From a virus (lineage: Duplodnaviria; Caudoviricetes): a stretch of 64,000 nucleotides of DNA. The position numbers and the translations under genes were made by a program. The notes under the pieces are model-generated. The model searched no databases, was not told the origin of the DNA, and was given only the letters and a program-made list of their open reading frames with translations. Where the stretch lies: IMG/VR virus record IMGVR_UViG_3300037423_000960, positions 9,473 through 73,472 of that record. One strand, given 5' to 3'. Each line of letters starts with the position of its first letter. Positions within the stretch are counted from its first letter, which is position 1. Of this stretch, positions 2,502 through 24,504 are shown piece after piece.

Positions 2502-3341
2502 CTATTTTGTACGAATCGTCCAACGATCGTCGGCGAGGTTCTCGTCGGCTGCGAAGCGCAGGTCTAGATACCCGTAGCCGCTGTCACCCCACGAACTATC
2601 CCAGCTATTCGCGAAAATGAGCACCTGCTCCGGAATGGCGCTGAGAGGAATACCCGCCGTGACGAATTTATGAGCGGTGTCAGACTCGCGGAACTTTAGA
2701 TCATAGCCACCGTACTGAAGAGCGTGACCACCTTCCATAGTCTCGCCGGCTTCGGGATACGGAATAATGCCAGTGCGATCGGCGAGCGAGGTGAACATAG
2801 AGCTGTAGCACGAGATGCCCATCACGAAACCGTGACCAGAGGCCAGACACGCGATCATCTCCTCGACACTCGGGCCAACGCGAATGTACTGACCGAACTT
2901 CTTGCGAGCGGCGTCCTTATCGGCCTTAGCGGAGGGATCCACGAAAACGTTCTTAGGTTCGTCCGGCCAGAGTTTCTCGGTCGGGACGCCGTAGCTGTTC
3001 ACGACCTTAGCTCCGTCCCGAATGTAGGCACCCGCGTCGATGTCACACTCTCCGTTCAGCCGACGCTCCTCGTAGTAGATTGCGAGAGCCGATTGTTCCA
3101 CCAGTTTTCGCTCACGTTCTGCCTCACGAGCCCACGCCTGACCAGTGCAGCTACCGAATTGTCCCTGATTCTTGATGCGCGGCTTGCGAAAGCGCGGAAC
3201 TTCGAAACGCACAGGCGGAGTCTTGGAGAGTTCCTCCTTGCCATGCGGTGTCATGCTATAGCGATAGTCCCGAAAGTCGGGAAGATCAGGACGCCACCCT
3301 AGACCACGATTTGTCTTGACGTGAAGGATCGGTGCTGTCAT
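2502..3341 (-). CDS. Papain-like C1A cysteine peptidase (xylellain-like)
   Basis: GLGWRPDLPDFRDY N-terminus; catalytic QGQFGSC, GGHA and FANSWDSSWG motifs; start at ATG 3341. Confidence 0.88.
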   Translation of the reverse strand: MTAPILHVKTNRGLGWRPDLPDFRDYRYSMTPHGKEELSKTPPVRFEVPRFRKPRIKNQGQFGSCTGQAWAREAERERKLVEQSALAIYYEERRLNGECDIDAGAYIRDGAKVVNSYGVPTEKLWPDEPKNVFVDPSAKADKDAARKKFGQYIRVGPSVEEMIACLASGHGFVMGISCYSSMFTSLADRTGIIPYPEAGETMEGGHALQYGGYDLKFRESDTAHKFVTAGIPLSAIPEQVLIFANSWDSSWGDSGYGYLDLRFAADENLADDRWTIRTK

Positions 3342-3346
3342 GGAAG

Positions 3347-5335
3347 TTACTCCGCTGCGATGGGTATGTTCTTCTCGACGATCTCGCACATATTGCCGAC
3401 ACAGGCAAACTCGCGAGTTCCTTCTACGGTGTCGACTCCCTTCTCGTAGAGCTCCAGCTTCGTCCAGTCTATGTCGTCTGGAATGGAGCTGGCGAGAATT
3501 TCGTAAACCTTCTTGTCGATGGTCTCGTACGGAAGCTGAGTGTAGACGCTATCGTTCTCAAAGTGTGGGAGGAAGCTGACGCCCGCGAGATGATCGAAGT
3601 TCTTGTAGACCCAACCGCCGACTTCCGGCCACTCTTCTTCACGAACACTGATGGTGCAGCTCACAGCATGCTCGGACCAGTTGAGGTTGTACAGCTTGAC
3701 CAGCTCGAGATGCTCTAGGGCCGTGACCTTGTCGCGAGTAACGGTGGACTCGGCCAGCTTAGTTGGAAAGCTGAACACCGTCATATCCTGCGGCCTACCG
3801 TCGTGAGGCTCGTTAGGAACACCCATGTCGGACATGAAGATCGTAACTGGATCCTTGTTGTCCTGCGAGATTCTTCGGATATAGTGCGGCGCGTGACCCT
3901 GATGGATACCCGATGAACAGAGTACGAGCTGACTGACTGTACCGCTCGGCTTGATCGTAGTCACGGCAACGCTCGGCGAGATACCGATATTCATAGCGTG
4001 GATGCGATTATGCTTGATGGCAGTGGCCTTCATGCGCTGAAGTTCACTAGCTAGCTGAGGAAGACCCTTGTCACCACGCATGAGAGGATTGTCGTAGACG
4101 CCGGTGAGACTCACGCCAAGAAGCCGTTCTTCCTCGGCGTTAACTTTCCATTCGGGCTCAACAAAGCTGAAGCGCGTCTGAGTTGACTGCCACGTACCGA
4201 GAATACTCGCAAGACGAATCTTATCGCGAATCTCTCCGGCGCTGTCCTTTTCGCGAAGTACTACCTCGCTGAGATTGCAGAGGCCGCGCGGACGTAGGAT
4301 GATCTCACCACAGGGATTAGTCCCGAACTCGTATCTATGATCGCGACGCCCAAGATTCTGAATCTTCTCCACAGCGCCGTAGCGATTGTAGATGCCGCGT
4401 TCGCCAGACTTAGAGTTGTAGAGAGCCAACCACTCCTCCATGAATTGACCGACCTCTGGCTTCTCGGTATAGGCGACAGAGTTGTTGGCGAGAGCTAGAT
4501 GCGGCTTGTCTTGGATCCAGCCGCCTGACTTGGCGTCACGCATACGAAGATCGCTCAGATTGCTGAGACTGATCTCCGCGCTGCGGCGAACTCCACCGAC
4601 TACGACGACCTCGCCCGTCTTGGTAGCGATCTCGTGGGCTTCGAGAGAGTTGAGCTTGCGACCAGCAGCACCCCTGAAGATGCGCACGGTAAAGCTGCAC
4701 AAATCTAGCAGTGGGGCAGGCCCGCTTGCGCGCCCTCCGAACGTTCTGAGGCGCTCCCCTGCTTTTCTGACTAGGCTGGTGTTAACCCTTGGCACCCGGC
4801 CCGCGTACAGGTGCTCGATGAGCTCTAAAAACGCCTGAGACCAGCCGAGCTTACTGTCCTGCACTACGATCTCGTCGGCGACGTTGGTGAACTCGTTCGG
4901 AACCTCCGGAAGCTGCTTGATGATCTGTCTCTCCACGGAGAACCCGACGCCAGTTCCACACATCAAGATGTAGAGAATCTCGGCGAAAGCTTTCGGGCGA
5001 TCGATCGGAAGATAGGCGCAGTTGAAGACGCTGATATTCTCACGCCGTGCTGCCTCTCCGGCGGTCATCATCGCTCGCATCGAGGGCATGATCGCTAGAT
5101 TGGAGACAGCATCCATCAGCTCAGAGCGAAGCTCCTGTGGAACCTTGTAGCCGTGATGTTCTTCGAGATCTTGTTCGAAATAATCGAAGTAGCGAGTGAC
5201 GGTTTCGTCCCAGTGCTCTCGCCGACCCTCCTGCTCTAGATATCTCGCGTAGCGCGACTTATGAATGAAATTCTGGTACGGGGTCGGGAGCTGCTTCTGG
5301 AGCATCCGTTGTGTTTCCTCTTGTTTGCTCGCCAA
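3347..5335 (-). CDS. nrdJ: Class II (adenosylcobalamin-dependent) monomeric ribonucleotide reductase
   Basis: FNCAY, VVVGGVRRSAEI, GTNPCGEI, TTIKPSGTVSQL and C-terminal ACVGNMC; no beta-subunit gene. Confidence 0.93.
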   Translation of the reverse strand: MASKQEETQRMLQKQLPTPYQNFIHKSRYARYLEQEGRREHWDETVTRYFDYFEQDLEEHHGYKVPQELRSELMDAVSNLAIMPSMRAMMTAGEAARRENISVFNCAYLPIDRPKAFAEILYILMCGTGVGFSVERQIIKQLPEVPNEFTNVADEIVVQDSKLGWSQAFLELIEHLYAGRVPRVNTSLVRKAGERLRTFGGRASGPAPLLDLCSFTVRIFRGAAGRKLNSLEAHEIATKTGEVVVVGGVRRSAEISLSNLSDLRMRDAKSGGWIQDKPHLALANNSVAYTEKPEVGQFMEEWLALYNSKSGERGIYNRYGAVEKIQNLGRRDHRYEFGTNPCGEIILRPRGLCNLSEVVLREKDSAGEIRDKIRLASILGTWQSTQTRFSFVEPEWKVNAEEERLLGVSLTGVYDNPLMRGDKGLPQLASELQRMKATAIKHNRIHAMNIGISPSVAVTTIKPSGTVSQLVLCSSGIHQGHAPHYIRRISQDNKDPVTIFMSDMGVPNEPHDGRPQDMTVFSFPTKLAESTVTRDKVTALEHLELVKLYNLNWSEHAVSCTISVREEEWPEVGGWVYKNFDHLAGVSFLPHFENDSVYTQLPYETIDKKVYEILASSIPDDIDWTKLELYEKGVDTVEGTREFACVGNMCEIVEKNIPIAAE

Positions 5336-8834: not shown

Positions 8835-8990
8835 TCACCGAGTGTAACGCAGACCGGCGTCAGTGTCTATACAGCGGAGACACATTCGGCAGTTGATCTC
8901 AGGTTCGCGCGTCTGAAACAACTCGGGATGAGGCTTTCCGCAGCGAGCACGACCATCAGGAAGAATATAGTGAACTCGTGGGTACGTCAT
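8835..8990 (-). CDS. Small His/Cys protein (51 aa), possible zinc finger; not in the ORF track
   Basis: Hand translation MTYPRVHYILPDGRARCGKPHPELFQTREPEINCRMCLRCIDTDAGLRYTR; ATGA coupling to upstream gene. Confidence 0.55.
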   Translation of the reverse strand: MTYPRVHYILPDGRARCGKPHPELFQTREPEINCRMCLRCIDTDAGLRYTR

Positions 8991-9526
8991 ACGTCATGCT
9001 CCCAACCGAGCTCTCCGTAGAACATCGCACGGACATTAGGATCGTGAAGATTGTAGATAGGAATCTTGTGCGCCTCGGCGATACGGAGAGTCTGACCAGT
9101 TCCACCGGAAGCCTTTCCGTCCTTAGTCCAGCAGACTACGAACTTTGACGGAGTGTGACAGTCCGCTCCGAGAACCTGGAAGGTGTTGCGAGTGTGCATC
9201 TTTCTCGCACCCTCGGAGCAGGCCTCCCAGTTCGGATGAAACTTTTCGGCGATGCTACGAGCTTCTCCTAGTGCCAGCTTGGAGTCCGGAATTGTCTGAG
9301 GGCGACGCTCGAATCCGTGCCACGGTACGAAGATCTCCATCTGCACGAGAACTGGAGTACCGTACTCGAAGGCCTGATCTGCTCCCTTAGCTCCTCCGCT
9401 TCGTAGCGTGTAGCCGCGATCAGCTAGCATACGTGCGATGCCACGCATCAGACCGAGGATATTTCCAGGAGTCTCTCTACTACCGATCCCGGCGTAGGCG
9501 GCGTAGTCTTCAACCCTCTCGAACAC
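8987..9526 (-). CDS. SLOG-superfamily (DprA/YspA-like) nucleotide-binding protein
   Basis: YAGIGSRETP, LRSGGAKGADQAFE, RNTFQVLG and GGTGQTLRIA; GTG start with GGAGG RBS. Confidence 0.8.
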   Translation of the reverse strand: MFERVEDYAAYAGIGSRETPGNILGLMRGIARMLADRGYTLRSGGAKGADQAFEYGTPVLVQMEIFVPWHGFERRPQTIPDSKLALGEARSIAEKFHPNWEACSEGARKMHTRNTFQVLGADCHTPSKFVVCWTKDGKASGGTGQTLRIAEAHKIPIYNLHDPNVRAMFYGELGWEHDV

Positions 9527-9863
9527 GTTCGTCGGCCTCCCACATAAGACGTCTCTTGAAGCGCTCCATGTCGTATAGGTGCGACCCTGCGTTGGCTTCA
9601 CTCGTGAAAAACATCTCACGATCTGAGCTTTTCTCCCCGCGCATTCCTATCACGAGTACAGTCTCAAATGGGTCGAGAATGTGCTCTCGTATCGCGCCCA
9701 GGAGTACGTTCTGAACCGGCACAGATTCTTTCGTCTGCATGTCAAGGCGCACGACGCTAGAAGCTGTCTGACGGTTAATGAGATCGTGCAGCACGGCAGC
9801 GTCTTCTTGCGACCAATGGTGCCCGCTAAGATGTTTGACGGCGAGATCAAGTAGAGTGGGCAT
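9510..9863 (-). CDS. Hypothetical protein
   Basis: TAATG coupling with upstream gene. Confidence 0.55.
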   Translation of the reverse strand: MPTLLDLAVKHLSGHHWSQEDAAVLHDLINRQTASSVVRLDMQTKESVPVQNVLLGAIREHILDPFETVLVIGMRGEKSSDREMFFTSEANAGSHLYDMERFKRRLMWEADERVREG

Positions 9864-13221: not shown

Positions 13222-13725
13222 CTAGCGCCCGCTGCTACCAAAGCCGCCGGAGCCTCTCTGACTGTCCTCGAGGCTCTTGGACTCTGTGAAGTGGGTGCGT
13301 ACCGTTGGCCGCATTACAGCCTGTGCCACCCGGTCTCCCGGTGCAATGGTTTGGGTGGCCTCGGTGACGTTCATGAGAATCACGCACCACTCTCCGCGAT
13401 AGTCTGCGTCGATCACGCCGGTGAGTACGACCAGACCTTTGAGAGCCATGCCGCTGCGAGACTCGATGCGACAGTGAATGTCCGGGTGCATCTCTGTGGC
13501 GAATCCGAGAGGAATCTTAGCAATGCGCCCAGGACCGAGCACACAACGATAGATCGCCGTAAGATCATATCCAGCAGCACTGAGAGAACCTCGCTGCGGA
13601 ATCTTTGCGTCTGGATGTAGCCGCTGGAACTTCGTCGGATAGCTGGTGAAGTCGCTAGGCACGACATCCAAGTCTACGATGTGCGGCTCAGAATTCCCAG
13701 TATTTTCTCTAGTGCTAGCACCCAT
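13222..13725 (-). CDS. dut: Trimeric dUTPase
   Basis: SAAGYDL, ESRSGMA, GVIDADYRGE, GDRVAQ and RGSGGFGSSG; ATGA coupling to polymerase stop. Confidence 0.95.
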   Translation of the reverse strand: MGASTRENTGNSEPHIVDLDVVPSDFTSYPTKFQRLHPDAKIPQRGSLSAAGYDLTAIYRCVLGPGRIAKIPLGFATEMHPDIHCRIESRSGMALKGLVVLTGVIDADYRGEWCVILMNVTEATQTIAPGDRVAQAVMRPTVRTHFTESKSLEDSQRGSGGFGSSGR

Positions 13726-15791
13726 CACAGTTCTCCCGTCAGAAACTTTTCGTAGTTCTCTGCGCCCTGCTTCTCCATAGAAGCTTCGCCCCAAGTGCGG
13801 CCACTGGCGACGTCGATCTTAATGGGGATGGTTAGCTCCATGGCGCTCTCCATGATCTCCTGAGCCAAGTTCACGGTCTTGACGCTTGCAGAGCTGATGT
13901 CGATCTCGTCGTGAACTGTGCCGTGAGGAAGAATACCTGAGCGGTACATCTCGCGCAGCGCCATCTTTGTCATGTCTGCGGCGCTTCCCTGGATAAGACG
14001 ATTCAGTGCCTTGTTGAGAAACTTGTAAGTACGCCCGTCGTCCTCTTTCGGGAAACGGAATCGTCGTCCCACTGGAGTCTTAATGTAACCCTTCTGCTTG
14101 ACAGCGTTCTGGGCCTTGCGAGCAAGCTGGCGAATGAATGGAGCCTGCTCGTCGAAGACAGCCATCAACTCCTGAGCCTCGGGGCCAGCCTTGAGATATT
14201 TGAACTCCTGATCACCCTTCATGAAGGAAGCCTCGGTGTACGGTAGACCGAGCGATAATGCCAGCTTTCCGCCGCCCATCCCGTAGGCCACGCCCAGATT
14301 GATAATCTTCGCTGGTTTGCGCTTCTTGGGATCCTTCCAGTCCTCCAGGACTGTGGCGACCATCTTGCGGGTTTCGTCGTGCAGGTCGGTACGCGGATTG
14401 GCTCTAAATCGATCAGCCATCTCGCGAGCCTTCATGCAGCCCGTGATCTCGGCAAAGTGAACTGTCAGACGAGGCTCTTGCGAAGAGTAGTCCATCACAT
14501 GGAAGAACTCACCCTCCTCAGGAAGAATCATGCTGCGAACCATTAAGCCTAGCTCAGGATCCTTGTCTGGCGAGGGAAAATTCTGGAAATTCGGCTGAGA
14601 AGAACTGAACCGCCCTGACAGCGCTCCGCGAACACCAGCCTTCAGCTCCTTACCGAGAACTCCTCCGCTGTCGTCGTCACGCTTGAGGGGATTGAAGTTC
14701 GGGAAGATGCGTCCGCCTTCCTGGAGGTAGAGCAGATTGTTCTCGAGAAACGTGGATCTAATGTTGTTCGTCTTGCGGCCGCGAAGAATAGCGTTTGCAA
14801 CTGGATGGGATAGAGATCGTAGCCAGTCTGCCGTGATACTCGGCTGCTCGGTCTTCTCGGTGAGGCCGTACTTAATGCTGAGCTTGTCAAATATTCGCGA
14901 GAGTTCTGCGGCATTGTCCCAGCTTCCTACAGTGATCCCAGTCTTATCCTTGATAAACCGTCTGGCGAGATCTTCTTCGTGAACTAACTTGCGCTGCTGA
15001 ATCTCGATGCCCGGAACGTCGACACGAACTCCGCGCATCCGCATATCTACGAGCATTGGGATAAGATCACACTCGAGCTCGTAGACTTTCTGGAGCTCCT
15101 GTTCCTCCATGATGGGATTGTAGAAGTCCCACAGAAGTCGAGTGATTGCGACGTCCTCACGACCGTAGATACCTACGACGTCGGGATGCACCCTCATGAG
15201 ATGCATCTTGATGTTGTCAGCCTTCGTGTTCTTCACACCGAGTTTCTTAGCTGCCTCAGCTAATGCGCGCTCGTCCTTACCACGTCCCACGAGGTCTTTG
15301 GCTAACCGATCTAGCTGATAGTTCGGACGATGCTCGTCCACGAGCGGAGCCTGAAACGAGACATCCTCTATGCGACCTGAGATCTTAATTCCCTCAGCAC
15401 GAAACCAACCGACGTCGTACTGTGCGTGGAAGAAGATCTTAGGTTGAGAATCGTCCTTCGTCAACTGACTACTCAGCCAGCTCTTCACCTTCACGGGATC
15501 TAGATTTCCCTCAGTGTGCCCGATGGGTAGATACTCGTGGAAGTTTTCAGCGTGAACTGCGATGCCGATTATCTTCCCGCCGTTCTGACCCTCGCGAGAA
15601 TAGGACCAGCCGGAGCCTCTCGTCTTCAGGAGAGGATCGTGAGTTTCTGAGTCTAGGGTAATCGGACCGTGAAGCTCGGGAAGATCCGAGAACATGTCTA
15701 GCATTGACGTTGGCTTTCGCTTACTGCGACTACCCTGTCTAACAGGGCCGTCCAGAAGCTCTTGTATAAAGCTGGTTTGTTCTGTTGACAA
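13725..15791 (-). CDS. polA: Family A DNA polymerase with 3'-5' exonuclease domain
   Basis: LDSETH, GRFSSSQPNFQN, MDYSSQEPRL, KIINLGVAYGMG, LNRLIQGSAAD and VHDEI. Confidence 0.95.
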   Translation of the reverse strand: MSTEQTSFIQELLDGPVRQGSRSKRKPTSMLDMFSDLPELHGPITLDSETHDPLLKTRGSGWSYSREGQNGGKIIGIAVHAENFHEYLPIGHTEGNLDPVKVKSWLSSQLTKDDSQPKIFFHAQYDVGWFRAEGIKISGRIEDVSFQAPLVDEHRPNYQLDRLAKDLVGRGKDERALAEAAKKLGVKNTKADNIKMHLMRVHPDVVGIYGREDVAITRLLWDFYNPIMEEQELQKVYELECDLIPMLVDMRMRGVRVDVPGIEIQQRKLVHEEDLARRFIKDKTGITVGSWDNAAELSRIFDKLSIKYGLTEKTEQPSITADWLRSLSHPVANAILRGRKTNNIRSTFLENNLLYLQEGGRIFPNFNPLKRDDDSGGVLGKELKAGVRGALSGRFSSSQPNFQNFPSPDKDPELGLMVRSMILPEEGEFFHVMDYSSQEPRLTVHFAEITGCMKAREMADRFRANPRTDLHDETRKMVATVLEDWKDPKKRKPAKIINLGVAYGMGGGKLALSLGLPYTEASFMKGDQEFKYLKAGPEAQELMAVFDEQAPFIRQLARKAQNAVKQKGYIKTPVGRRFRFPKEDDGRTYKFLNKALNRLIQGSAADMTKMALREMYRSGILPHGTVHDEIDISSASVKTVNLAQEIMESAMELTIPIKIDVASGRTWGEASMEKQGAENYEKFLTGEL

Positions 15792-15792
15792 G

Positions 15793-16281
15793 CTACGCGG
15801 CCAGTGCCTGAGCTTTCTCGAGAAGCGCGGACATATGCTTCCGCGCTAATTCTATGCCTAGCCGAGAGTCCCAAGTGCAGAGATGTGAGATAGCGAGTTG
15901 CTCGTCGGCGTCCGAGATGCCGTTCTGCTCAAAGAACATCTGGAGATCGCTGTAGGGAGCACGGCCAGTCGGCGCATAGTCGTACTGTACGATACACTCA
16001 AGAATCTTATCGCAGTAGTGGACGCCCTTCTGTAAATCCTCGACTCCGTTCTTCTTCCTCCAGCGTGAGGCATACTTAGAACCGCAGCTCTCGAGATAGC
16101 CGATGCGATTCTTGGCACACAGATCCCAGTGCTGAAACTTCGCACCCTTGTAGTGACTGCCTCCATGCTGGATGTCGTTGGCACTCGGTTGCTTCTTGCT
16201 TCCGGTGGAATGCTCGCAGTAGCCAAGAGTCTGCCCACAGACTGAACAGTTGCCCTCGCGACAGTTGTCGTAGTGTCCCAT
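15793..16281 (-). CDS. DUF3310 (SaV/T7 gp1.7-like) protein, putative nucleotide kinase
   Basis: QHGGSHYKG, QHWD, KYASRWRKKNGVEDLQKGVHY; N-terminal Cys cluster. Confidence 0.75.
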   Translation of the reverse strand: MGHYDNCREGNCSVCGQTLGYCEHSTGSKKQPSANDIQHGGSHYKGAKFQHWDLCAKNRIGYLESCGSKYASRWRKKNGVEDLQKGVHYCDKILECIVQYDYAPTGRAPYSDLQMFFEQNGISDADEQLAISHLCTWDSRLGIELARKHMSALLEKAQALAA

Positions 16282-16835
16282 CAGCTTCTAGCCTTTCTCC
16301 ATTGACCGTCAAGATCTCTGCGCATGTTCGCGATGTTCGTCATGAGCCACGGAGACATAGTGACGAACTCAGCTCTGTAAAGTTCTAGTGTCTGAGTCAT
16401 TTTGTCCCAGGCTCTCTTATAGTAGATCTCCGCGTAGCGATTGCCGAGCATCCTCTCATGGATCATACTGACGCAGAACTCAGCACGATCACACAGTTCG
16501 ACGAGCCCCCACTCAGGATCAGTGAGACCCTCTATCAAAGAGTAGAGAGCTTGAGGTAACGTGGTTCTCATGTGATCACGCTCAAGCTTGTCCATGAGAG
16601 TCTCCAGTACAGGATCGGACCACTTTGTCGGACCCGGCATATCTCCCGTAGCCTTCTCGCCGAAGTCATGGAGCTGAGCGGCTATGATAATCTCTCGCCG
16701 GGCATCAGGCCAGAGCATAAGAAGAAGGAGAACGACTCCCCACGTATGCTCGCTGATATTCTCAGCGTGGATGTTCTCCATCGTGTGCTTTCGCCGAACC
16801 TTTCCGGAGAGCCACGCGTCTACGAAGGAGATCAT
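16281..16835 (-). CDS. HD-domain phosphohydrolase (YfbR-like deoxynucleotidase)
   Basis: VRRKHT, ENISEHTWGV, QLHDFGEKATGDMP and CDRAE. Confidence 0.8.
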   Translation of the reverse strand: MISFVDAWLSGKVRRKHTMENIHAENISEHTWGVVLLLLMLWPDARREIIIAAQLHDFGEKATGDMPGPTKWSDPVLETLMDKLERDHMRTTLPQALYSLIEGLTDPEWGLVELCDRAEFCVSMIHERMLGNRYAEIYYKRAWDKMTQTLELYRAEFVTMSPWLMTNIANMRRDLDGQWRKARS

Positions 16836-17869
16836 CTTGCGAGAGCTTTCCTCTGAGCCTTCACCTGCTTATCCATCAACCAGTTCACGCAGGCCAGTCG
16901 CAAGGATTCTGACTCACACGTTCGCAAGATCTCCATGGCAAGATCTATGCGAACTTCTATAGGAGTATCTATGCCTGTGAGACTCTTCAGCTTGTATATC
17001 CTGTAAGCCTCGCAAATCGGTCTCACTACGCGGCCGAGATAAGAACTCAATTTACCGACGGGAATCTCGCCTCCGTTGACGAATTCTGCTAGAATCTTCA
17101 TATCGAGAGTGAGACCGTGTTCCGTTAGACTGTAGTCTGCCTTCTGAGAGGCGAAGTTCTTAAACTCGTCCATGTGCTCCCAGCAGCGCTGGGAGGTCTC
17201 GTTCTCAAGGTAGAGGTGCATGTTCTTGGAGATCTGGTAGTAGGTGCCGACCTCGAGACCTGCGTGATAGGCGATGTACTCATGCAGAAGTGAGAAGTGA
17301 ACGAGATTACTACCCATAGCTCCGTAGACGAGGTCGTTGCTGCGATTAGTCACCGTCATGTCAAGAAGATAGCCGCCCTCTCTCGGACGGGTGTCGAACA
17401 AGACCTGCTGGTTGCAGGCGAAGTCACGTCCCTGATCCTTCACTAGCTCTTGGGAGTCCCAGATCTGAAGAACGATACGACGATCCTCTGGATTACTTCG
17501 TAGTTTCTGCACAACTCTCGCGAGTTGATCGAAGTGGAAGTGTCTGCGCCAACGGAAGCCGTACGGAGCCGCGAAAGTCACTCCGTCGTCAGAGTAATTC
17601 TTCATGCCGCTGTTGTAGAGATTCAGAGGCGCTACGGTGTCTAGGCCGGCGAACATCCACATCGTCTCGAAGAGATGGAAGAAGTGATTCGCGTCCCGCA
17701 CAGGATGGTCGAGAAGTCTCCTGCGAGGATTGACGTACTCTAGACACACCGGCTTCGGGAACCGAATGACAGGACCGTTACGACTGTCGGTCTTGATTCC
17801 CTCCGACTTGAGAGCTTGCATCACACGACCGAAGCCCTCGTTGGGGCAGTCTATCTCGAAGCTATACAT
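16832..17869 (-). CDS. Thymidylate-synthase homologue, probable dUMP hydroxymethylase
   Basis: DRRIVLQIWD, catalytic FAC and NRSNDLVYGAMGSN (RSND hydroxymethylase-type motif, Asn at the dUMP-specificity position); lies next to a 5-hmdU kinase. Confidence 0.85.
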   Translation of the reverse strand: MYSFEIDCPNEGFGRVMQALKSEGIKTDSRNGPVIRFPKPVCLEYVNPRRRLLDHPVRDANHFFHLFETMWMFAGLDTVAPLNLYNSGMKNYSDDGVTFAAPYGFRWRRHFHFDQLARVVQKLRSNPEDRRIVLQIWDSQELVKDQGRDFACNQQVLFDTRPREGGYLLDMTVTNRSNDLVYGAMGSNLVHFSLLHEYIAYHAGLEVGTYYQISKNMHLYLENETSQRCWEHMDEFKNFASQKADYSLTEHGLTLDMKILAEFVNGGEIPVGKLSSYLGRVVRPICEAYRIYKLKSLTGIDTPIEVRIDLAMEILRTCESESLRLACVNWLMDKQVKAQRKALAR

Positions 17870-18095
17870 TCTCAGTCTCTTCCTGATACATGCCGATGAG
17901 ATTACCGTGTCCGTCTGACTGCCCGTCCAGATGATGGCGACCGCGAGAACACACGACGTAATACCCCTCGCGGTCTCTAAAGACCTTCCGCAGAGAGTTT
18001 TTCTTCATGCAGTCAAAGTCTCCGTCGACGCGGATGTAGGAGCCTGCCTTGATCTCAGCCAGACGGGCGTACCTGCGACCTTGCTTATCTCTCAC
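17862..18095 (-). CDS. Small basic hypothetical protein
   Basis: 77 aa, overlapping both neighbours within the modification cluster. Confidence 0.55.
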   Translation of the reverse strand: MRDKQGRRYARLAEIKAGSYIRVDGDFDCMKKNSLRKVFRDREGYYVVCSRGRHHLDGQSDGHGNLIGMYQEETENV

Positions 18096-18904
18096 GCACC
18101 CCTCCGGAAGCTAGGATTGATGAACTCACGACCGCGGGTTTGGTACGCTTTCTTCCACTGGACGCGCACGTCCTTGCGTGTTCCCGAAAAGCCGCCGCTG
18201 CCCGTCTTGGGTGTCTTTTCTACGACTTTGACGACTTTCGGGTGGAGCTCCGCAAGACGCTCAGCCGCCGCCGCTTGAGTCTCGCTAGTTCGGTAGTGGC
18301 TGAAGCCTCCAGGAGCTCCTGATCCCTTGCACTGATCCCAGGCGGCATCCGTAATGACGGCGTTTTTCTCACCTTTCTCAAAAAGCGAAAGAACGACATG
18401 GTAGTCCTCCATCATGTCAACGTCGTCGTAGCGAATGCCGTAGTGCCGCAGCGCCTCAGGTAAGACGCAGTGGACCGCGTTCATGCGCTCCACAGTGAGC
18501 GTCGTAGCAGGATACGCCCAATTATTTCCCTGCCTAGGCGATAATCCTGAATGGACGTAATCGTTGTGAGCCACGAGAATATGAAGTCTCGAAAAGATAC
18601 GCTCCACGTCGGCACCGGCGGGACGTAGATTGTGCGCGGATGGATCCTTGCGAACGAAAAACGCTAGATCGTCGTCTAGCATGATGACCGGCTCACCCTG
18701 TCTAGCAAGCTCGTCGACAATCCATTGCCGCACCGCAGCCAGCCCTACCGGGGGCCGCGCCACTGCGTTTCGAGAGCGCTCGAGATGCTCGGTGACCTCC
18801 TCCGCGGGGCATACCAGCGTTGTGCATTGCCGCAGAGCCGGCGTCAGGTTGTCCCATGTAAATTGAGCGTTGACACGATCACGCGTCGGGATGAAGATCT
18901 GCAT
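18092..18904 (-). CDS. GT-A-like glycosyltransferase (GREB1/TET-associated GT-like)
   Basis: IFIPTRDR start, VIMLDDDLAF (DxD-type) and MMEDYHVVLSLFEKG. Confidence 0.65.
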   Translation of the reverse strand: MQIFIPTRDRVNAQFTWDNLTPALRQCTTLVCPAEEVTEHLERSRNAVARPPVGLAAVRQWIVDELARQGEPVIMLDDDLAFFVRKDPSAHNLRPAGADVERIFSRLHILVAHNDYVHSGLSPRQGNNWAYPATTLTVERMNAVHCVLPEALRHYGIRYDDVDMMEDYHVVLSLFEKGEKNAVITDAAWDQCKGSGAPGGFSHYRTSETQAAAAERLAELHPKVVKVVEKTPKTGSGGFSGTRKDVRVQWKKAYQTRGREFINPSFRRGA

Positions 18905-19169
18905 TCTTAATTCCTTCTATGCGAGTAATGCCATGACGGTGAAGGACTACGACAACGTCTTCCTCCATGGCGTCTATCTCGATCTCGTAGCCGATCATCT
19001 CCACGTCAAGGCGCAGAATGGGAAATCTCGAGGCTCCCATGGAGAACTCGGCATCCGTGAGATGAAGTTTGTTGACGAATTTACCACTCTCGTCTCTACC
19101 GACGAGAAGCTCCCCGTCCCGTCCCTCGAGATGTATGTCGCGTTGTCCGGGGCCTAATCTGAGCTTCAC
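18879..19169 (-). CDS. Hypothetical acidic beta-rich protein
   Basis: 96-aa ORF between the kinase and GT genes. Confidence 0.5.
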   Translation of the reverse strand: MKLRLGPGQRDIHLEGRDGELLVGRDESGKFVNKLHLTDAEFSMGASRFPILRLDVEMIGYEIEIDAMEEDVVVVLHRHGITRIEGIKNADLHPDA

Positions 19170-19211
19170 ACCTGCCTCCTGCTGAGTAGCTATCTTATAG
19201 CAAGCCGTTTC

Positions 19212-20105
19212 TCAGGGGACTATAGGCTTTGCCTTACGCCAGTCGTAGCCGGAGCGTGGACGACCCTCGCCATTCTTCACACGGAGATACTTGTCCAGTT
19301 CGCACAGAGAGAACTGAACATCGGTGACTCCGTAGTGAACACCAATCTCAGGCATGTAGTCCTTGAACGCACGATCCATGCTGAGACGACCGAGAAGAGC
19401 CTGCATCTTGTGCTGAGCCCTCTGCTGAGGCATCCCGGCCTGCGTCGGACGATCGTGAAGACGATTGAGACCGCGGATAGCTCCGGGGCCAGCCGGTGAC
19501 CACGTCAGCTTGTCGGTAGCATTCTCGAGCACAGGCGTCAGCATCATGTCCAGTGCGATCTCCTTCGCCATGAAGGGACCAATTCCGGGCATTCCCTGCA
19601 AGAGCTCACAGACCTCCTGCCACCGATTCGTGCGCTCAGCCATGCCGATGACAGAGTCCAGACGCATCCGAAACGGAGTGAGAAACTGCGACACGACGAC
19701 GATCTGCTTAGGATCTGTGCTGCCCGCGTTCGTTATGATGTACGCTCCGGTGAAGACTTTCTTCCCGGCAGCGAGACGCTCGCCGGCGCGACGTATGAGA
19801 AAATCTGGGTTCCACTCGTATTGAAAACCAACGTCTTCTAGAAACTCAATGCTGCCGAAGTAACGCGCGATGGCACAGTTGAGTGCCATGACTTGTTTCG
19901 GAACATTTCCACGATTAGGATTATACCAATTCCGGATCAGCCACTGCGTAGTGCGATCGTGCTTGCGGAGAATATTTGTGAACTTGTAGCGCGAGAGAAT
20001 TGGATCTGTGGTCCAGGGACCTGGCTCACCTGCAACTCTCTTCTGCCGGATAGCTTCGCGCTCGTTCAGGTAGTGAACGAAAGTCTCGTAGATCTCTTGG
20101 TTCAT
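19212..20105 (-). CDS. 5-hydroxymethyl-dU DNA kinase (aGPT-Pplase1 / 5-HMUDK family)
   Basis: EREAIRQKR, PWTTDPILSRYKFTNILRKHDRTT, GIGPFMAKEI, GPGAIRGLNRL and DVQFSLCELDKY. Confidence 0.85.
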   Translation of the reverse strand: MNQEIYETFVHYLNEREAIRQKRVAGEPGPWTTDPILSRYKFTNILRKHDRTTQWLIRNWYNPNRGNVPKQVMALNCAIARYFGSIEFLEDVGFQYEWNPDFLIRRAGERLAAGKKVFTGAYIITNAGSTDPKQIVVVSQFLTPFRMRLDSVIGMAERTNRWQEVCELLQGMPGIGPFMAKEIALDMMLTPVLENATDKLTWSPAGPGAIRGLNRLHDRPTQAGMPQQRAQHKMQALLGRLSMDRAFKDYMPEIGVHYGVTDVQFSLCELDKYLRVKNGEGRPRSGYDWRKAKPIVP

Positions 20106-20185: not shown

Positions 20186-20833
20186 TTACTCGACCATGCC
20201 ACCGTCGCTCCCGGTCGCCGCGGTCGGCTCACCGGTGTCCTGCGACTCCGCTTCCTGCAGACGACTGAAGCCAGCCTGCGTCAGGAAGACGTAGATGCTG
20301 TCCTCGCGCGACTCGGTGCGGACGAGACCGTCCTTCTCGAGCTTGTCGATCTGCTTCTCGACCGTCTTGGTCTTCTTCCCGGTCTCCGTGACGAAGTCCT
20401 GGACGGTGATCTGCGTGTTGTCGATGTCGCCGGCGTCCGAGACTTCCCCGCGCTCACGGATGAAGTTCAGCGCGTCGAGCTCCGCCTGCTGAGCCTTGGT
20501 CAGCTTCTTGGGCTTGCTGGCCTTGGCCTTCGGCTCCGGAGCCGCGATCGAGCTGTACTCCTCAGCCTTGTCCGCCTCGTTGACCAGATGACCGTAGCGC
20601 TGAACTGCGTCGCGAACATAGGCACGGATGTACGAGGGTCCGTAGCCCTGCGACTTCTTCGGCGAGAAGTTCTCGAGGAGATGCTTCTCCAGATCGGCGT
20701 AGCTGACGCCGTCGCCGCCGGGAGCGCCGCCGAGTTCGTTCGCTGCCTGACGCATCGCGTCGACGACAGTGCCTGCACGGACAGCCGTGGGACCGACCCA
20801 CAGCTTCTTTTCGGTATCCAATTTCGTAGACAT
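20186..20833 (-). CDS. Probable DNA-binding protein with two winged-helix-like regions and a Lys/Ala linker
   Basis: PEPKAKASKPKKLTKA linker; C-terminal VQDFVTETGKKTKTVEKQIDKLEKDGLVRTESREDSIYVFLT is wHTH-like; host-like codon usage. Confidence 0.55.
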   Translation of the reverse strand: MSTKLDTEKKLWVGPTAVRAGTVVDAMRQAANELGGAPGGDGVSYADLEKHLLENFSPKKSQGYGPSYIRAYVRDAVQRYGHLVNEADKAEEYSSIAAPEPKAKASKPKKLTKAQQAELDALNFIRERGEVSDAGDIDNTQITVQDFVTETGKKTKTVEKQIDKLEKDGLVRTESREDSIYVFLTQAGFSRLQEAESQDTGEPTAATGSDGGMVE

Positions 20834-20861
20834 GACTTCTTGATGCTCCTTCTAGCAGGGA

Positions 20862-21725
20862 CTAGAACGCCTGCTCGTCTCCGGGCTCGTCGTCGGGATG
20901 CTCCATGTCACCCTTGACTTCGCCGGCATCGATCCGCTTACGCAGCTCGCTGGCGGCAGTGAAAATCTCGCGCCCGTTTGCGAGATCCTTCACCTTCGGC
21001 CCCTCCTCGATGAGGAACCCGTACCACGAACCCTTGTCGTTGGACTCTGGAATCGTGGTAATCTTGTACGAGTAGAACCACATCGCAGGACGGAAGAGAG
21101 TCCCGGCCTTGGCGTGGCCTACCGGAAATCGCTCCATGCGATTGTTGATCGTGGTTGCCCACCCGCGACCCTTGCGAGCCTGAACCCCAGAGAAGTTCAG
21201 AACCGCTGCCTCCCATTCCTGCGTCTCCGGATTCACCAGGACGACGAAGTACTGAAGAGCATCGGTGAGCTCATTGCCCTGCTCGTCGTAGCGCTTACCC
21301 TTGTCGTCCGGCGTCGCCGCGTTGAACTTCGAGGGATCGTCACCCATGTCGTAGGCAGGACCGGCGTTATTCGGTCGCCACGCCATGTATCGGTGACTAA
21401 AGCCGACCGGAACGGCGAGAAAACCCGTCTCGCCGTTGATGAGCTTCCGCGTCGCAGAGTTGACGAACATGCCCTGACCGGCGTTAGGAAGAAACTTAGC
21501 GTGACCACGCTGAAGCTCCTTCGAGAGCGCTTGCAGGATGCGGACATACGGGATGAGAAAGTCGGACTGCTGGAAATCGTCCAGACCCGCACCGGCTTCT
21601 GCGAAGAAGTCGTCGTCCGCCGCAACCAAATCGGTTGACTCGTTCTTGGTCGTTGTGAGATTGGTACCGCCAGCCGCAGGTGCCTCACTCTTTTCTTCTT
21701 CAGCTTTCTTCTTTGCTTCGGCCAT
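20862..21725 (-). CDS. Probable single-stranded DNA-binding protein
   Basis: GAGLDDFQQSDFLIPYVRILQALS, NDKGSWYGF and acidic tail ending in F; replication-module context. Confidence 0.65.
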   Translation of the reverse strand: MAEAKKKAEEEKSEAPAAGGTNLTTTKNESTDLVAADDDFFAEAGAGLDDFQQSDFLIPYVRILQALSKELQRGHAKFLPNAGQGMFVNSATRKLINGETGFLAVPVGFSHRYMAWRPNNAGPAYDMGDDPSKFNAATPDDKGKRYDEQGNELTDALQYFVVLVNPETQEWEAAVLNFSGVQARKGRGWATTINNRMERFPVGHAKAGTLFRPAMWFYSYKITTIPESNDKGSWYGFLIEEGPKVKDLANGREIFTAASELRKRIDAGEVKGDMEHPDDEPGDEQAF

Positions 21726-21765
21726 TAGGCTCTCCTCTGTTCACTGGCTTGCCACCAGACGCTTC

Positions 21766-21793
21766 ACTATAAGCGCGTTAACTCACAACGCAA
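21766..21793 (-). promoter_or_regulatory. Sigma70-like promoter
   Basis: CTTGCGT-N16-TATAGT upstream of the SSB gene. Confidence 0.5.
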
Positions 21794-21825
21794 GGGATAT
21801 TTTACTCTAGAATAACTCGGCAGAC

Positions 21826-22392
21826 TTACTTAATGACTGCCTTATCGCCAAACCAGACTCCCCACTTCTCAAGTGGGAGCATGACGCCATTCTGAATCTG
21901 CTCGCGCGCGAATGCCATAAAGGTTTGAGGGTGCACGTCCAGCTTGATGGTAGGGTCGAAGCCCATCTTGGCGAGCGTTTCACGTGCTAACTCGGCCTGC
22001 TTCGTGTCACCCTTGCTGAACTGAAGGGCTAGATTACGCTTGATAATATCGCTATGTCCGTGCGAGTCGAGCCACTCGTAGGCTTGCTCCTTGGACTGTG
22101 GCGGAATTGATCCGACGACGTATTTGGTTGAGACCTTGAGACCCTCCAGCGTAGTGATCTCGCGGACGCCTGCCTGCTTCAGCAACTCGGGCAACTTCTG
22201 TGTCTCTATCTCGACCTTCCGGCGAGTGAGATCTTTGATTTTATTCTGTAGCTCGGCGATGTCTCCCTCGAGAAGACGATACTCTCTCGCGAGATTGGTA
22301 ATATGAGCCTTAAAGCGCTCAGAGCCGGTACTGGTGTCGGCCTCCTCGAAGAAGTCTACGTCACTCTGCTCCGTCTGCGTCTCTTCGACCAT
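21826..22392 (-). CDS. Conserved phage replication-module protein (coiled coil)
   Basis: LPELLKQAG...TLEGLKV, AYEWLDSHGHSDIIK and VHPQTFMAFAREQ. Confidence 0.65.
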   Translation of the reverse strand: MVEETQTEQSDVDFFEEADTSTGSERFKAHITNLAREYRLLEGDIAELQNKIKDLTRRKVEIETQKLPELLKQAGVREITTLEGLKVSTKYVVGSIPPQSKEQAYEWLDSHGHSDIIKRNLALQFSKGDTKQAELARETLAKMGFDPTIKLDVHPQTFMAFAREQIQNGVMLPLEKWGVWFGDKAVIK

Positions 22393-22757
22393 TAGTCTTG
22401 TTCCTCTTCCAGCCTGACTTCTACGGGAGAATAGAAACCCGTTACGGGTTCTCCATGCTTTGTATTGCGGTTTTTCTCAAAGCGCAAGTAGCGGAACTTC
22501 GTGATACCTAGGTCAAGCATCACCATGCCGGTCACAATGGCGCTGAGAGGATCTCCACCCGCCCAGACGATGAAGTCCGTTCGGGGATCAAACTCCGAGA
22601 GTGCTCTCCTGAGACGCTCTATGGAGAGCTCAGGATTAGCCGAGGTCCGATCTCCAGCAGAGAGCACAAAGCGGATCTCGCCATATACGGCGGCGGGGCT
22701 GACGTCGGGCTGAAACCGGACGGCCTGTAGGACAAAGACCTTACTCGTCATCGGCAA
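22392..22757 (-). CDS. Hypothetical protein
   Basis: Translationally coupled; VYGEIRFVL and DFIVWAGGDP. Confidence 0.6.
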   Translation of the reverse strand: MPMTSKVFVLQAVRFQPDVSPAAVYGEIRFVLSAGDRTSANPELSIERLRRALSEFDPRTDFIVWAGGDPLSAIVTGMVMLDLGITKFRYLRFEKNRNTKHGEPVTGFYSPVEVRLEEEQD

Positions 22758-24504
22758 AGAGATCCCTTATGTCAATTAGATTCTCGGCGATCGCGCCCTT
22801 GGACTTGAGTACCTTGTCGATTCTCTCGTCCACCGAGCGCGGGGTGATAAGATAGTGATAGTTCACGGGAAAGTGTTGTCCGATGCGATGGCATCTGTCG
22901 TTGGCTTGCAGTTCGTTCTCAAGGGAGAAGTCTCGGCTGTACCAAATGACCTCGCTGGCGACAGTCAGGTTGAGACCAATACCCCCGGACTTAGGAGTGG
23001 AGAGAAAGACCTTGATATTGTCGTCTGTCTGAAACTTCTTAAGATTCGTCAACTTGTCTTTGGTCCGACCAACGTAGTCTATCCAGGAGATGCCAGCCTC
23101 GGTTAGTGCCTTGCTCAGAAGACGATAGTCACCCTCGAACTTAATCCAGACGATAACCTTCCCGCGAGCTTCCTTGATAATCTCTACGGTGCGCTCCACT
23201 CGACGATTCGGGAACTCCTGATACAGTTCAGGATCAACTATCTTTCCGTTCTCGTCCTTCTTCGCTCTCTTGTGGATGAACCCACCTATGAGTTGCTGAA
23301 GACGAATGAGACGAGTGATGGCGAGACGCGCGGTGAGAATACCGGCGTCAAGGTCGAGGAAGAAGTCCTTCTTCATCTGAGCATATACGCGACTCTGCTC
23401 TTCAGTGAACGGAACTTCTACACGAATGAAGTTCTTGGCAGGAAGATCCAGGCAATCCTCCTTGAGAACTCGGTACGTGTACGAGTCGATCTTGCGTTTA
23501 AGTTCTTCCTCATTTACGTAACCGACGATCTTCTTGTTCTGAAAACCGCCCATGCGACAGAAGTGATTCCGGAAGGCGTAGAAACTGCTGTAGCCCAGGA
23601 TATGAGGGTCCAGGAAGTAGAACTGTGAATAAAGATCCTCCACGCCCTGGGAGATTGGAGTTCCTGTGAGAATGCGTCGATACTTGGCTAGCTTACCTAG
23701 CTTCAGAAGAGTCTTAGTTCTCTTTGAGCTGGAGTCTTTTATGCGGCTACTCTCGTCCACGACCAGCATGGCTCTAGAAGAGAGAAGAAGCTCTTGCAGG
23801 AGCTCCTCACCGCTCTTGTGACTCATCATGTCGATGTGGATTGCAATGATCCTGAGACCATCCTTAAAATACCGCGCTTTGGACAGTCGGAGAGCCTCTT
23901 CATGGGTTGGGGCTGCAACGGTGTACCCGCCCGCCCAAGGCACAGAGGGGCTTAAATGTTCCGGAACTTGTTCGTTTATCCACTGAGCATGGACGCCGTT
24001 GGGGGCGACGATCAATAACGTGTCGATCTTGCCGTTCTCACCACCGTTGAGAAAAATGTCGGCGGCGTCGTCCAACAGGGTCTTGGTCTTTCCGGTGCCC
24101 TGCTCCATGAAGTACCCGAAGGCGATCTTCCCTCTGGCGAGAATGTTAGCCTTGAGTTGATGCTGATAGGGCTTGTGCTTATACGGGAACTCGAAGCCAA
24201 CAGGCTCAATCCACTTTGCGTTACGAGTCTCACGCTCCTGCTCGCGCATACGCCGAAATTGTTCCACCAGTGTAGCAGCGGGGCCGCGCCAAGTGACGCC
24301 CTCTAGACGCGTGTCGAGGAACTCTAGATTGCTCCTCGAAAGCTCAATGAAAGGCTTACCCTGTACGTACCGCTTGCGGCCTGGAAGCTCTGAGAGAGCG
24401 TTAAAGACGTGCGGTGGAACCCGACCGTCTAGCCACGCTTTCTTCTCGTCTGACTCAAAGACAACTTGTATCGTCACCCTATCCCGATGCTTTCTAGCAT
24501 CCAC
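22741..24504 (-). CDS. SNF2-family SF2 helicase
   Basis: MEQGTGKTK, VVDESSRIK, LTGTPI, GGIGLNLT and QANDRCHRIGQ. Confidence 0.92.
   Translation of the reverse strand: MDARKHRDRVTIQVVFESDEKKAWLDGRVPPHVFNALSELPGRKRYVQGKPFIELSRSNLEFLDTRLEGVTWRGPAATLVEQFRRMREQERETRNAKWIEPVGFEFPYKHKPYQHQLKANILARGKIAFGYFMEQGTGKTKTLLDDAADIFLNGGENGKIDTLLIVAPNGVHAQWINEQVPEHLSPSVPWAGGYTVAAPTHEEALRLSKARYFKDGLRIIAIHIDMMSHKSGEELLQELLLSSRAMLVVDESSRIKDSSSKRTKTLLKLGKLAKYRRILTGTPISQGVEDLYSQFYFLDPHILGYSSFYAFRNHFCRMGGFQNKKIVGYVNEEELKRKIDSYTYRVLKEDCLDLPAKNFIRVEVPFTEEQSRVYAQMKKDFFLDLDAGILTARLAITRLIRLQQLIGGFIHKRAKKDENGKIVDPELYQEFPNRRVERTVEIIKEARGKVIVWIKFEGDYRLLSKALTEAGISWIDYVGRTKDKLTNLKKFQTDDNIKVFLSTPKSGGIGLNLTVASEVIWYSRDFSLENELQANDRCHRIGQHFPVNYHYLITPRSVDERIDKVLKSKGAIAENLIDIRDLFADDE

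Follow-up and report, generated by a model that had tools for sequence, protein, structure and literature searches.

A pre-replicative pathway that passes through 5-hydroxymethyl-2'-deoxyuridine (5-hmdU) triphosphate (hmdUTP) has been described for phages with 5-hydroxymethyluracil (hmU) in their DNA (PMC8989533, introduction). The proven 5-hmdU DNA kinases, M6 gp54, PaMx11 gp49, ViI gp67/gp243, phiW-14 gp37, and SP10 gp186, are P-loop kinases (PMC8989533, Table 1, section 15). Considered here is an operon of nine open reading frames (ORFs) on the minus strand of a 64,000-nucleotide stretch of virus DNA (the window), which comprises bases 9473-73472 of the linear, 73,472-bp IMG/VR virus record IMGVR_UViG_3300037423_000960. 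The operon shares with the clusters of phages PaMx11, M6, and Pam3 a backbone and gene order consisting of a PF18723 protein, a (here predicted) dUMP hydroxymethylase homologous to thymidylate synthase (TS), an HD-domain 5'-deoxynucleotidase, a DUF3310 protein, and a family-A DNA polymerase (PolA). The PF18723 proteins of these clusters are 31-35% identical to that of the window, and Pam3 also shares gp32-34-like genes upstream. The window differs from these clusters in having no P-loop kinase, no amino acid:DNA transferase (AADT), and no pyridoxal phosphate (PLP), radical-SAM, or FAD tailoring enzymes; instead, a TAGT-type glycosyltransferase (GT) of the GT-A fold fills the slot between the PF18723 and TS genes.

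Glucosylation of hydroxymethylcytosine (hmC) in T-even phages follows the same logic: a hydroxymethyl nucleotide from a TS homolog is built into DNA by the polymerase and receives its sugar there from a GT. A further link is phrog_842, the PHROG family matched by the window GT, which is named after the T6 beta-glucosyl-HMC alpha-glucosyltransferase. The base in T-even phages is cytosine, however, whereas uracil is predicted for the window (Asn at the N177 equivalent of the TS homolog), which also has the added PF18723 protein. Base J synthesis (kinetoplastid JBP1/2 with the glucosyltransferase JGT) and phage systems that combine Tet/5mYOX enzymes with a GT-A share with the window an R…DDD…EDY motif, TAGT membership, and a glycosyl group predicted on a 5-hydroxymethylpyrimidine in DNA. 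In those systems the hydroxymethyl group comes from a Tet/JBP dioxygenase, whereas the window encodes no Tet/JBP protein and is predicted to use the pre-replicative TS-homolog route. The gene association is itself already known in the literature: contigs with ThyS-associated GT-A genes have been counted in metaviromes (bioRxiv 10.1101/2023.12.21.572611, section 9), and for the partner genes of HTVC023P-type pelagiphages, which differ in belonging to a podovirus lineage with other hosts, no product or mechanism has been proposed beyond one that 'broadens the functionality' (PMC9599517). Chemical characterization of the product was not found there; nor, in the literature consulted, was any paper found on the nucleoside content of PhiJL001, LuckyBarnes, or phiRSL1, three phages discussed below, or on glycosyl-hmU from a TS-route phage. 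The cluster is a variant of known hydroxymethylpyrimidine glycosylation systems, with PF18723 as a conserved extra component.

On balance it is probable, at a moderate level of confidence, that the operon replaces thymine with hmU and then glycosylates it, giving a base-J-like O-glycosyl-5-hmdU with no phosphorylation step, and that the PF18723 protein is a stand-alone AADT paralog rather than a kinase. A sequence-only reading of the window had proposed a thymidine hypermodification cluster with a GT and without an AADT, which the family assignments and searches support. It had also taken the ORF at 19212-20105 for a 5-hmdU DNA kinase paired with the GT, which replaces the AADT; that part rests on a misleading domain name, as the ORF encodes the PF18723 helical protein, orthologous to PaMx11 gp50, and no kinase occurs in the record or its complete relatives. 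An ORF check found the nine-ORF run on the minus strand at the coordinates that had been given, and Pfam and PHROG scans of the window ORFs upheld the GT, TS, HD, DUF3310, PolA, and dUTPase families. The genes of the run are as follows:

19212-20105, minus strand: PF18723 protein (aGPT-Pplase1 or 'HMUDK_hel'), 297 aa; Pfam PF18723, 1.3e-45
18879-19169, minus strand: 96-aa ORF in the variable spacer; no Pfam or PHROG match
18092-18904, minus strand: TAGT/JGT-like GT-A, predicted DNA glycosyltransferase, 270 aa; PF20691, 46.3 bits; phrog_842, 1.6e-40
17862-18095, minus strand: 77-aa ORF; no significant Pfam or PHROG family match
16832-17869, minus strand: TS homolog, predicted dUMP hydroxymethylase, 345 aa; PF00303, 5e-20; phrog_5131, 2.7e-93
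16281-16835, minus strand: HD-domain YfbR-like 5'-deoxynucleotidase, candidate dTMPase; PF12917, 1.2e-11; phrog_6047, 1.5e-32
15793-16281, minus strand: DUF3310 protein, candidate dNMP kinase for 5-hmdU monophosphate (hmdUMP); PF11753, 1.6e-4 (below the gathering score); phrog_5839, 8.6e-28; phrog_236 'nucleotide kinase', 7e-15
13725-15791, minus strand: PolA with 3'-5' exonuclease; PF00476, 4.4e-48
13222-13794, minus strand: dUTPase; PF00692, 7e-29, residues 63-189

The GT exceeds the gathering cut-off of PF20691 (27.5 bits) and is the only such gene in the record. Its AlphaFold2 (AF2) model (pLDDT 94) has a GT-A fold, with RmlT, GpgS, TarP, and TarS as the top Foldseek matches (1e-5); a sequence search of the PDB with the GT found nothing. 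An R…DDD…EDY/F active-site motif is common to the base-J glucosyltransferase and phage DNA GT-A enzymes (bioRxiv 10.1101/2023.12.21.572611, section 8). Within this motif R59, D77-D78-D79, and E166 of the window GT are invariant among 43 homologs, and D167 and Y168 are at least 90% conserved. Remote homologs of the GT (26-28% identical) adjoin Tet/JBP dioxygenase genes. From its family and from gene context, a hydroxymethylase here and Tet/JBP enzymes in the remote homologs, we infer that a 5-hydroxymethylpyrimidine in DNA is the acceptor of the sugar. GT, TS, HD, and DUF3310 genes occur in a circular 40-kb phage that has no PF18723, so the PF18723 protein is not indispensable to a GT of this family. 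Direct glycosylation of the hydroxymethyl group, without an activation step, is the simplest reading. Among the products that had been suggested from sequence, a base-J-like glycosyl-hmU remains the best reading, whereas a sugar-phosphate on hmU and the use of 5-pyrophosphomethyl-U as a sugar donor lose their basis because there is no kinase.

The specificity of the TS homolog was read from HMMER alignments to the ThyA structure 4h0r and to MilA. The catalytic Cys is present (motif '…dfaC…'), Asn stands at the equivalent of E. coli N177 ('RSND…G…sN'), where MilA has Asp, Asp is kept at the D169 equivalent, and the L143 position holds a polar residue (Arg or Asp). Asn at N177 signifies uracil and a non-hydrophobic residue at L143 a hydroxymethylase (PMC13326640, section 24); a 5-hydroxy-dCMP synthase is recognized by Asn replacing Asp169 and Asp at position 177 (PMC13326640, section 28). 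The protein is predicted from these residues to be a dUMP hydroxymethylase, and the roles of dCMP hydroxymethylase and 5-hydroxy-dCMP synthase are ruled out by the Asn at the N177 and the Asp at the D169 equivalents. It is the sole TS homolog in the record, and PF12851 (Tet/JBP) is absent from the record and from six relatives. Since the N177, D169, and L143 residues fit and there is no Tet/JBP gene, the TS homolog is the likely source of hmU. The HD 5'-deoxynucleotidase gene adjoins the TS gene in relatives too, and the PolA gene lies downstream of the TS gene in every related locus that reaches that far. The DUF3310 protein is a candidate kinase for hmdUMP from its PHROG label. Together, the TS homolog, dUTPase, HD nucleotidase, DUF3310 protein, and PolA match the pre-replicative hmdUTP pathway of hmU phages.

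In the pathway proposed from these families, the dUTPase would supply dUMP, the TS homolog would convert dUMP to 5-hmdUMP, and the HD 5'-deoxynucleotidase would remove dTMP. The DUF3310 protein may phosphorylate hmdUMP toward hmdUTP, and PolA would incorporate hmdU. After replication, the single TAGT/JGT-like GT-A would move a sugar from a host NDP-sugar directly onto the 5-CH2OH of hmdU in DNA, and the resulting base-J-like O-glycosyl-hmdU would shield the DNA from host nucleases. Neither a phosphorylation step nor an amino-acid transfer step appears to be encoded.

The 297-aa ORF matches PF18723 with 156.4 bits (cut-off 25), residues 4-279 aligning with positions 2-277 of the 281 in the profile. 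Pfam now names this family 'HMUDK_hel: 5-hmdU DNA kinase, helical domain' (formerly aGPT-Pplase1), but the proven P-loop 5-hmdU DNA kinases belong to a distinct family, PF18748, which matches neither the 297-aa ORF nor, at E <= 10, anything else in the whole record. The name of PF18723 is explained by a fusion to the kinase domain in SP10 gp186, where the PF18723 match spans only the C-terminal half; gp186 with a C-terminal deletion, that is, the kinase domain alone, stayed active (PMC8989533, section 15). In vitro, kinase activity does not need PF18723. The Walker A motif of the verified kinases reads NIRGTxGxGK[ST] in an alignment of four of them (A4), and no Walker A motif ([AG]x4GK[ST]) is present in the 297-aa ORF. 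Its AF2 model (pLDDT 95.6) is all-alpha, with twelve helices and no beta-sheet, and thus is not the alpha/beta fold of P-loop NTPases. The top structural match of the model is an AADT, PaMx11 gp46 (8z2n_B; Z 11.5, rmsd 4.0, 229 of 288 residues aligned), followed by helix-hairpin-helix (HhH) DNA glycosylases (Z 8-10); as Z is inflated for helical folds, these matches are read jointly with the sequence evidence. A PDB sequence search with the PF18723 protein returned only noise. The ORF is 33% identical to PaMx11 gp50, which follows the kinase gene gp49 in that phage, and is unrelated to gp49 itself. Because it belongs to PF18723 and not PF18748, has no Walker A motif and an all-helical model, matches an AADT best, and is orthologous to gp50, the 297-aa protein is not a kinase; it is the PaMx11 gp50 ortholog, an AADT paralog with an HhH glycosylase-like fold.

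An alignment of 18 diverse PF18723 members shows C268-E269, D50, D186, K272, and R47 to be invariant, and the protein looks like an enzyme, with a catalytic-type Cys in its invariant Cys-Glu pair. In a low-identity alignment C268 coincides with the catalytic Cys of AADTs. The Glu-Thr just upstream of that Cys binds metal in AADTs (PMC13458397, section 37); these positions (in E-T-x-L-C) are Gln-Phe in the 297-aa ORF and Glu-His in PaMx11 gp50 in the same low-identity alignment. PF18723 is a core partner of the hydroxymethylase in the whole phage supergroup, whatever the downstream chemistry. The homolog in M6 is presumably gp55, given its position beside gp54. This protein could be omitted when the glycine adduct was reconstituted in vitro (PMC8989533, section 16), so PF18723 would be dispensable for AADT activity also. 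Virions of M6, ViI, SP10, and phiW-14 contain no hmdU, and residues that are not hypermodified become T via an enzyme not yet identified (PMC8989533, introduction). Our best guess is that the PF18723 protein engages flipped hmU in DNA, either presenting it to a tailoring enzyme or processing untailored hmU residues.

Recurrence of the module was assessed in the 84 IMG/VR loci nearest to the window PF18723 protein (L034-L118). All 84, wherever the sequence reaches, have the order PF18723, variable slot, TS, and PolA, an order not due to chance, and PF18723 likewise lies immediately upstream of the hydroxymethylase gene, with the slot between them, in PaMx11, Pam3, PhiJL001, and phiRSL1. The slot is a variable cargo site of 0-2.6 kb. 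Its cargo is a TAGT GT-A in about 40 of the 84 loci, radical-SAM/SPASM proteins in 24 (in some of these with a GT as well), an unknown protein of 421-450 aa (about 440 aa) without a Pfam match in 21, and a protein of about 340 aa in 18, where it belongs to either of two unknown families (10 and 8 loci). An FkbM methyltransferase (checked against Pfam in one locus) also occurs, and a P-loop 5-hmdU DNA kinase (HMUDK) occurs in L053 only. The window is the simplest, GT-only version of the module. In two loci, L085 (8163-9985) and L103, the slot is empty and PF18723 abuts the TS gene, and within 8 kb there is no other modification-like enzyme, only primase, helicase, HD protein, and lysozyme genes.

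The module recurs in independent lineages, namely PhiJL001, LuckyBarnes, phiRSL1, L018, and about 40 of the 84 IMG/VR loci. Phage PhiJL001 of Alphaproteobacteria (AY576273) encodes PF18723 (gp19), GT (gp22, 33% identical to that of the window and annotated in GenBank as a glucosyl transferase), TS (gp24), HD (gp25), DUF3310 (gp26), and PolA (gp28) proteins, and its complete genome, like the window, has neither kinase nor AADT. It differs in having an extra Nmad5 protein (gp23) between GT and TS and a dCMP deaminase, and its sequences are about 33-36% identical to those of the window. Brevibacterium phage LuckyBarnes (MF668275.1, L025) carries consecutive genes (gp38-gp41) for a 517-aa TS homolog, two adjacent TAGT GTs, and PF18723; here the module turns up independently in an actinophage, with a Gram-positive host. 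The jumbo phage phiRSL1 (NC_010811.2, 163104-171498, ORF230-237; L026) has TS, PF18723, a sulfotransferase, two GTs, two nucleotidyltransferases, a third GT, and APS kinase, the GTs being of TAGT type, and neither a P-loop HMUDK nor an AADT is found in its genome. This gene set suggests a sulfated oligosaccharide on hmU.

Because the slot is empty and no other modification enzyme lies near in L085 and L103, PF18723 may act on hmU on its own. It is conceivable, though unlikely, that the PF18723 protein is itself the key transferase or lyase, in which addition of its Cys at C6 would activate hmU or glycosyl-hmU without phosphate; what is packaged would then not be simple O-glycosyl-hmU but could be some other adduct, or thymine at sites that are not targets, and the GT product would be parallel or an intermediate. 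The bare PF18723-TS pairs speak for such a role, as do the invariant Cys-Glu pair and charged residues, the alignment of the Cys with that of AADTs, the AADT as closest fold, and the hmdU-free virions in which leftover residues become T. Set against this are the omission of M6 gp55 from the glycine-adduct reconstitution (a PF18723 homolog by position only), the Gln-Phe at the AADT metal-ligand positions, and the fact that hydroxide and glycoside are poor leaving groups. We assign a similarly low probability to a broader form of the idea, in which PF18723 is a kinase-independent enzyme acting on hmU in DNA through covalent Cys-C6 chemistry and is the common core of modular thymine-modification cassettes with interchangeable slot cargo; here it would cooperate with the GT to give a glycosylated thymine derivative without phosphate activation.

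The sequence-only reading had noted no AADT, radical-SAM, or PLP enzyme in the window, and profile searches extend this to the whole 73,472-bp record, in which radical-SAM and PALP models found nothing and PF18724 (AADT) had no match at E <= 1 (controls: PaMx11, 3e-29; Pam3, 6e-20); an AADT gene outside the window, named there as evidence that would tell against the proposal, was thereby looked for and not found. Among the HMM checks suggested for the ORFs and the genome, PF18723 and TAGT PF20691 gave matches and PF18724 gave none; the kinase family PF18748, searched in addition, gave none either. Searches by tblastn and with a custom profile of the four A4 kinases found no kinase in the record but recovered their controls at about 1e-82, and the only AAA_33-like signal is the Walker A motif of a RecD-like helicase. 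The only [AG]x4GK[ST] motifs of the record are in this helicase, the tail tube protein, an 1837-aa ORF (32536-38049), and a 154-aa ORF, far from the cluster. Relatives were searched because the record is incomplete. Kinase and AADT (PF18748 and PF18724) are absent from 19 related IMG/VR records, and the four-kinase profile likewise matched nothing in them. Among the 19 are relative G003, which is complete, since it has direct terminal repeats (91,890 bp; GT 84% and PF18723 protein 80% identical to those of the window), and two relatives that are 97% complete (G013 and G015). The complete genomes of PhiJL001, LuckyBarnes, and phiRSL1 likewise have no kinase (PF18748 and four-kinase profile) and no AADT (PF18724), whereas the same searches recovered both genes in the positive controls PaMx11 and Pam3.

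These results bear on a scheme in which hmU in DNA is phosphorylated, whether by PF18723 in the role of an unconventional kinase, by a host kinase, or by one that escaped detection, and the GT acts on phospho-hmU to give a sugar-phosphodiester or to displace the phosphate. In SP10 gp186 the kinase and PF18723 form one protein, in PaMx11 and Pam3 they are neighbors, and one related locus (L053) has a P-loop HMUDK in its slot. Certain GT-A enzymes use phosphate monoesters as sugar acceptors. Modified T with phosphate-linked sugars has been reported for SP-15, YerA41, and Carin-5 (PMC12686479). The scheme is nevertheless very improbable, given the all-helical 297-aa protein without Walker A, the activity of the kinase domain without PF18723, the absence of a kinase from the record and complete relatives with positive controls, and the GT homolog in a phage with neither kinase nor PF18723. 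The known kinases, moreover, yield a monophosphate: only 5-phosphomethyl-2'-deoxyuridine (5-PmdU) was observed, so that the pyrophosphorylation of hmdU assumed by the sequence-only reading is outdated (PMC8989533, section 15).

The chance that the GT instead glycosylates a polymer on the host surface or a protein of the phage, in the manner of prophage TarP, leaving plain hmU or T in the phage DNA, appears slight. The best solved-structure matches of the GT are indeed the wall-teichoic-acid glycosyltransferases RmlT, TarP, and TarS, but TarP is also the best PDB match for proven phage DNA GT-A enzymes (bioRxiv 10.1101/2023.12.21.572611, section 8), the gene is flanked by those for PF18723 and the hydroxymethylase in about 40 loci and four independent lineages, and the protein is a TAGT member above cut-off with remote homologs beside Tet/JBP genes. 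Finally, it is scarcely credible that a classical kinase, AADT, and tailoring genes lie in the part of the genome, roughly a third, that the linear record (about 68% complete by CheckV) lacks, as the complete G003, PhiJL001, LuckyBarnes, and phiRSL1 and the two 97%-complete relatives all lack both genes, and known systems keep the kinase and AADT genes right beside PF18723 and TS.

Several points nonetheless weigh against the glycosyl-hmU reading. The incompleteness of the record means that the absence of genes rests partly on relatives, and a very divergent kinase, or a host kinase, may escape profile searches. The acceptor of the GT is deduced from family and context, and some members of its PHROG family glycosylate a sugar rather than a base. 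This reading also assigns no reaction to the strictly conserved, enzyme-like PF18723; should that protein act on the same hmU residues, the finished base might be something other than plain glycosyl-hmU.

The name 'HMUDK_hel' is an annotation trap: it invites human and automated annotators alike to label a non-kinase as a 5-hmdU DNA kinase. At least 590 IMG/VR contigs and about 158 sequenced phages carry PF18723, and for all of these the misnaming would misdirect predictions of phage DNA chemistry. The family is thereby singled out as a conserved enzyme-like protein awaiting a reaction. The predicted hexosyl-5-hmdU, made by a TS-homolog route and a JGT-like GT, can be tested in the cultured phages PhiJL001, LuckyBarnes, and phiRSL1. 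The interest of glycosyl-hmU DNA lies in the evasion of restriction and CRISPR, in failures of sequencing, and in the DNA glycosyltransferases that it offers for mapping hmU.

Judging by its genes, the window is a fragment of a tailed phage and not of a bacterial chromosome, because the record has terminase, portal-like, capsid, tail tube, and long tail genes along with a replication module; the genome hosting the operon would be that of a tailed phage of about 90 kb. Megablast found no match to the 8-kb region among 50,697 phage records. The dUTPase ORF as listed overlaps the end of PolA by 70 nt (13725-13794); because of this overlap and because its Pfam match begins at residue 63, the gene probably starts further downstream. 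The 96-aa and 77-aa ORFs were considered as core parts of the pathway and rejected, being poorly conserved and without a Pfam or PHROG family. A tblastn search with the 96-aa ORF found nothing outside its own record, and most small ORFs in the PF18723-GT spacer of relatives, which measures about 30-890 nt, are unlike it. The 77-aa ORF was found, at 48% identity, in L006-L008 and L015, which are the closest relatives, but in no others.

Upstream of the operon lies a conserved module, assigned by Pfam and syntenic in relatives:

20186-24504, minus strand: 215-aa winged-helix-like protein, Pam3 gp34-like protein, gp33-like protein (DUF7307), gp32-like protein, and SNF2 helicase

None of these proteins has a kinase P-loop. 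The 215-aa ORF, whose position upstream of PF18723 suggested a kinase, was rejected as such: it has no P-loop, gives E = 57 in BLASTP against gp49, and has only weak winged-helix matches. The DUF7307 ORF, with a weak ABC_tran match, was rejected as a hidden NTPase since it has no Walker A motif. The three consecutive minus-strand genes at 20862-22757 belong to new Pfam families named after Pam3 gp34, gp33 (DUF7307), and gp32, and are syntenic with the SNF2 helicase across PF18723-carrying phages.

Elsewhere in the window, a 210-aa protein (8987-9619, minus strand) matches phrog_768, 'DprA-like DNA recombination-mediator protein' (3.4e-60), and weakly the Pfam family DNA_processg_A. A class II-like ribonucleotide reductase (RNR) with weak RNR matches and, beside it, a papain-family C1 peptidase homolog (3347-5335 and 2502-3389, both minus strand) are encoded downstream of the terminase gene. 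Between 46000 and 62000, the G+C content climbs from about 0.54 to about 0.60-0.63 over the capsid/portal and early-gene regions, where the genes are still phage-like (GP7-type capsid, scaffold, DUF4055 portal-like protein). Outside the window, the same phage encodes a uracil-DNA glycosylase (UDG)-superfamily protein (G000:C1:1686-2195, locus L046; PF03167, 2.9e-9), with endolysin and ATP-dependent DNA ligase genes nearby; this protein fits a need for policing uracil under raised dUMP pools.

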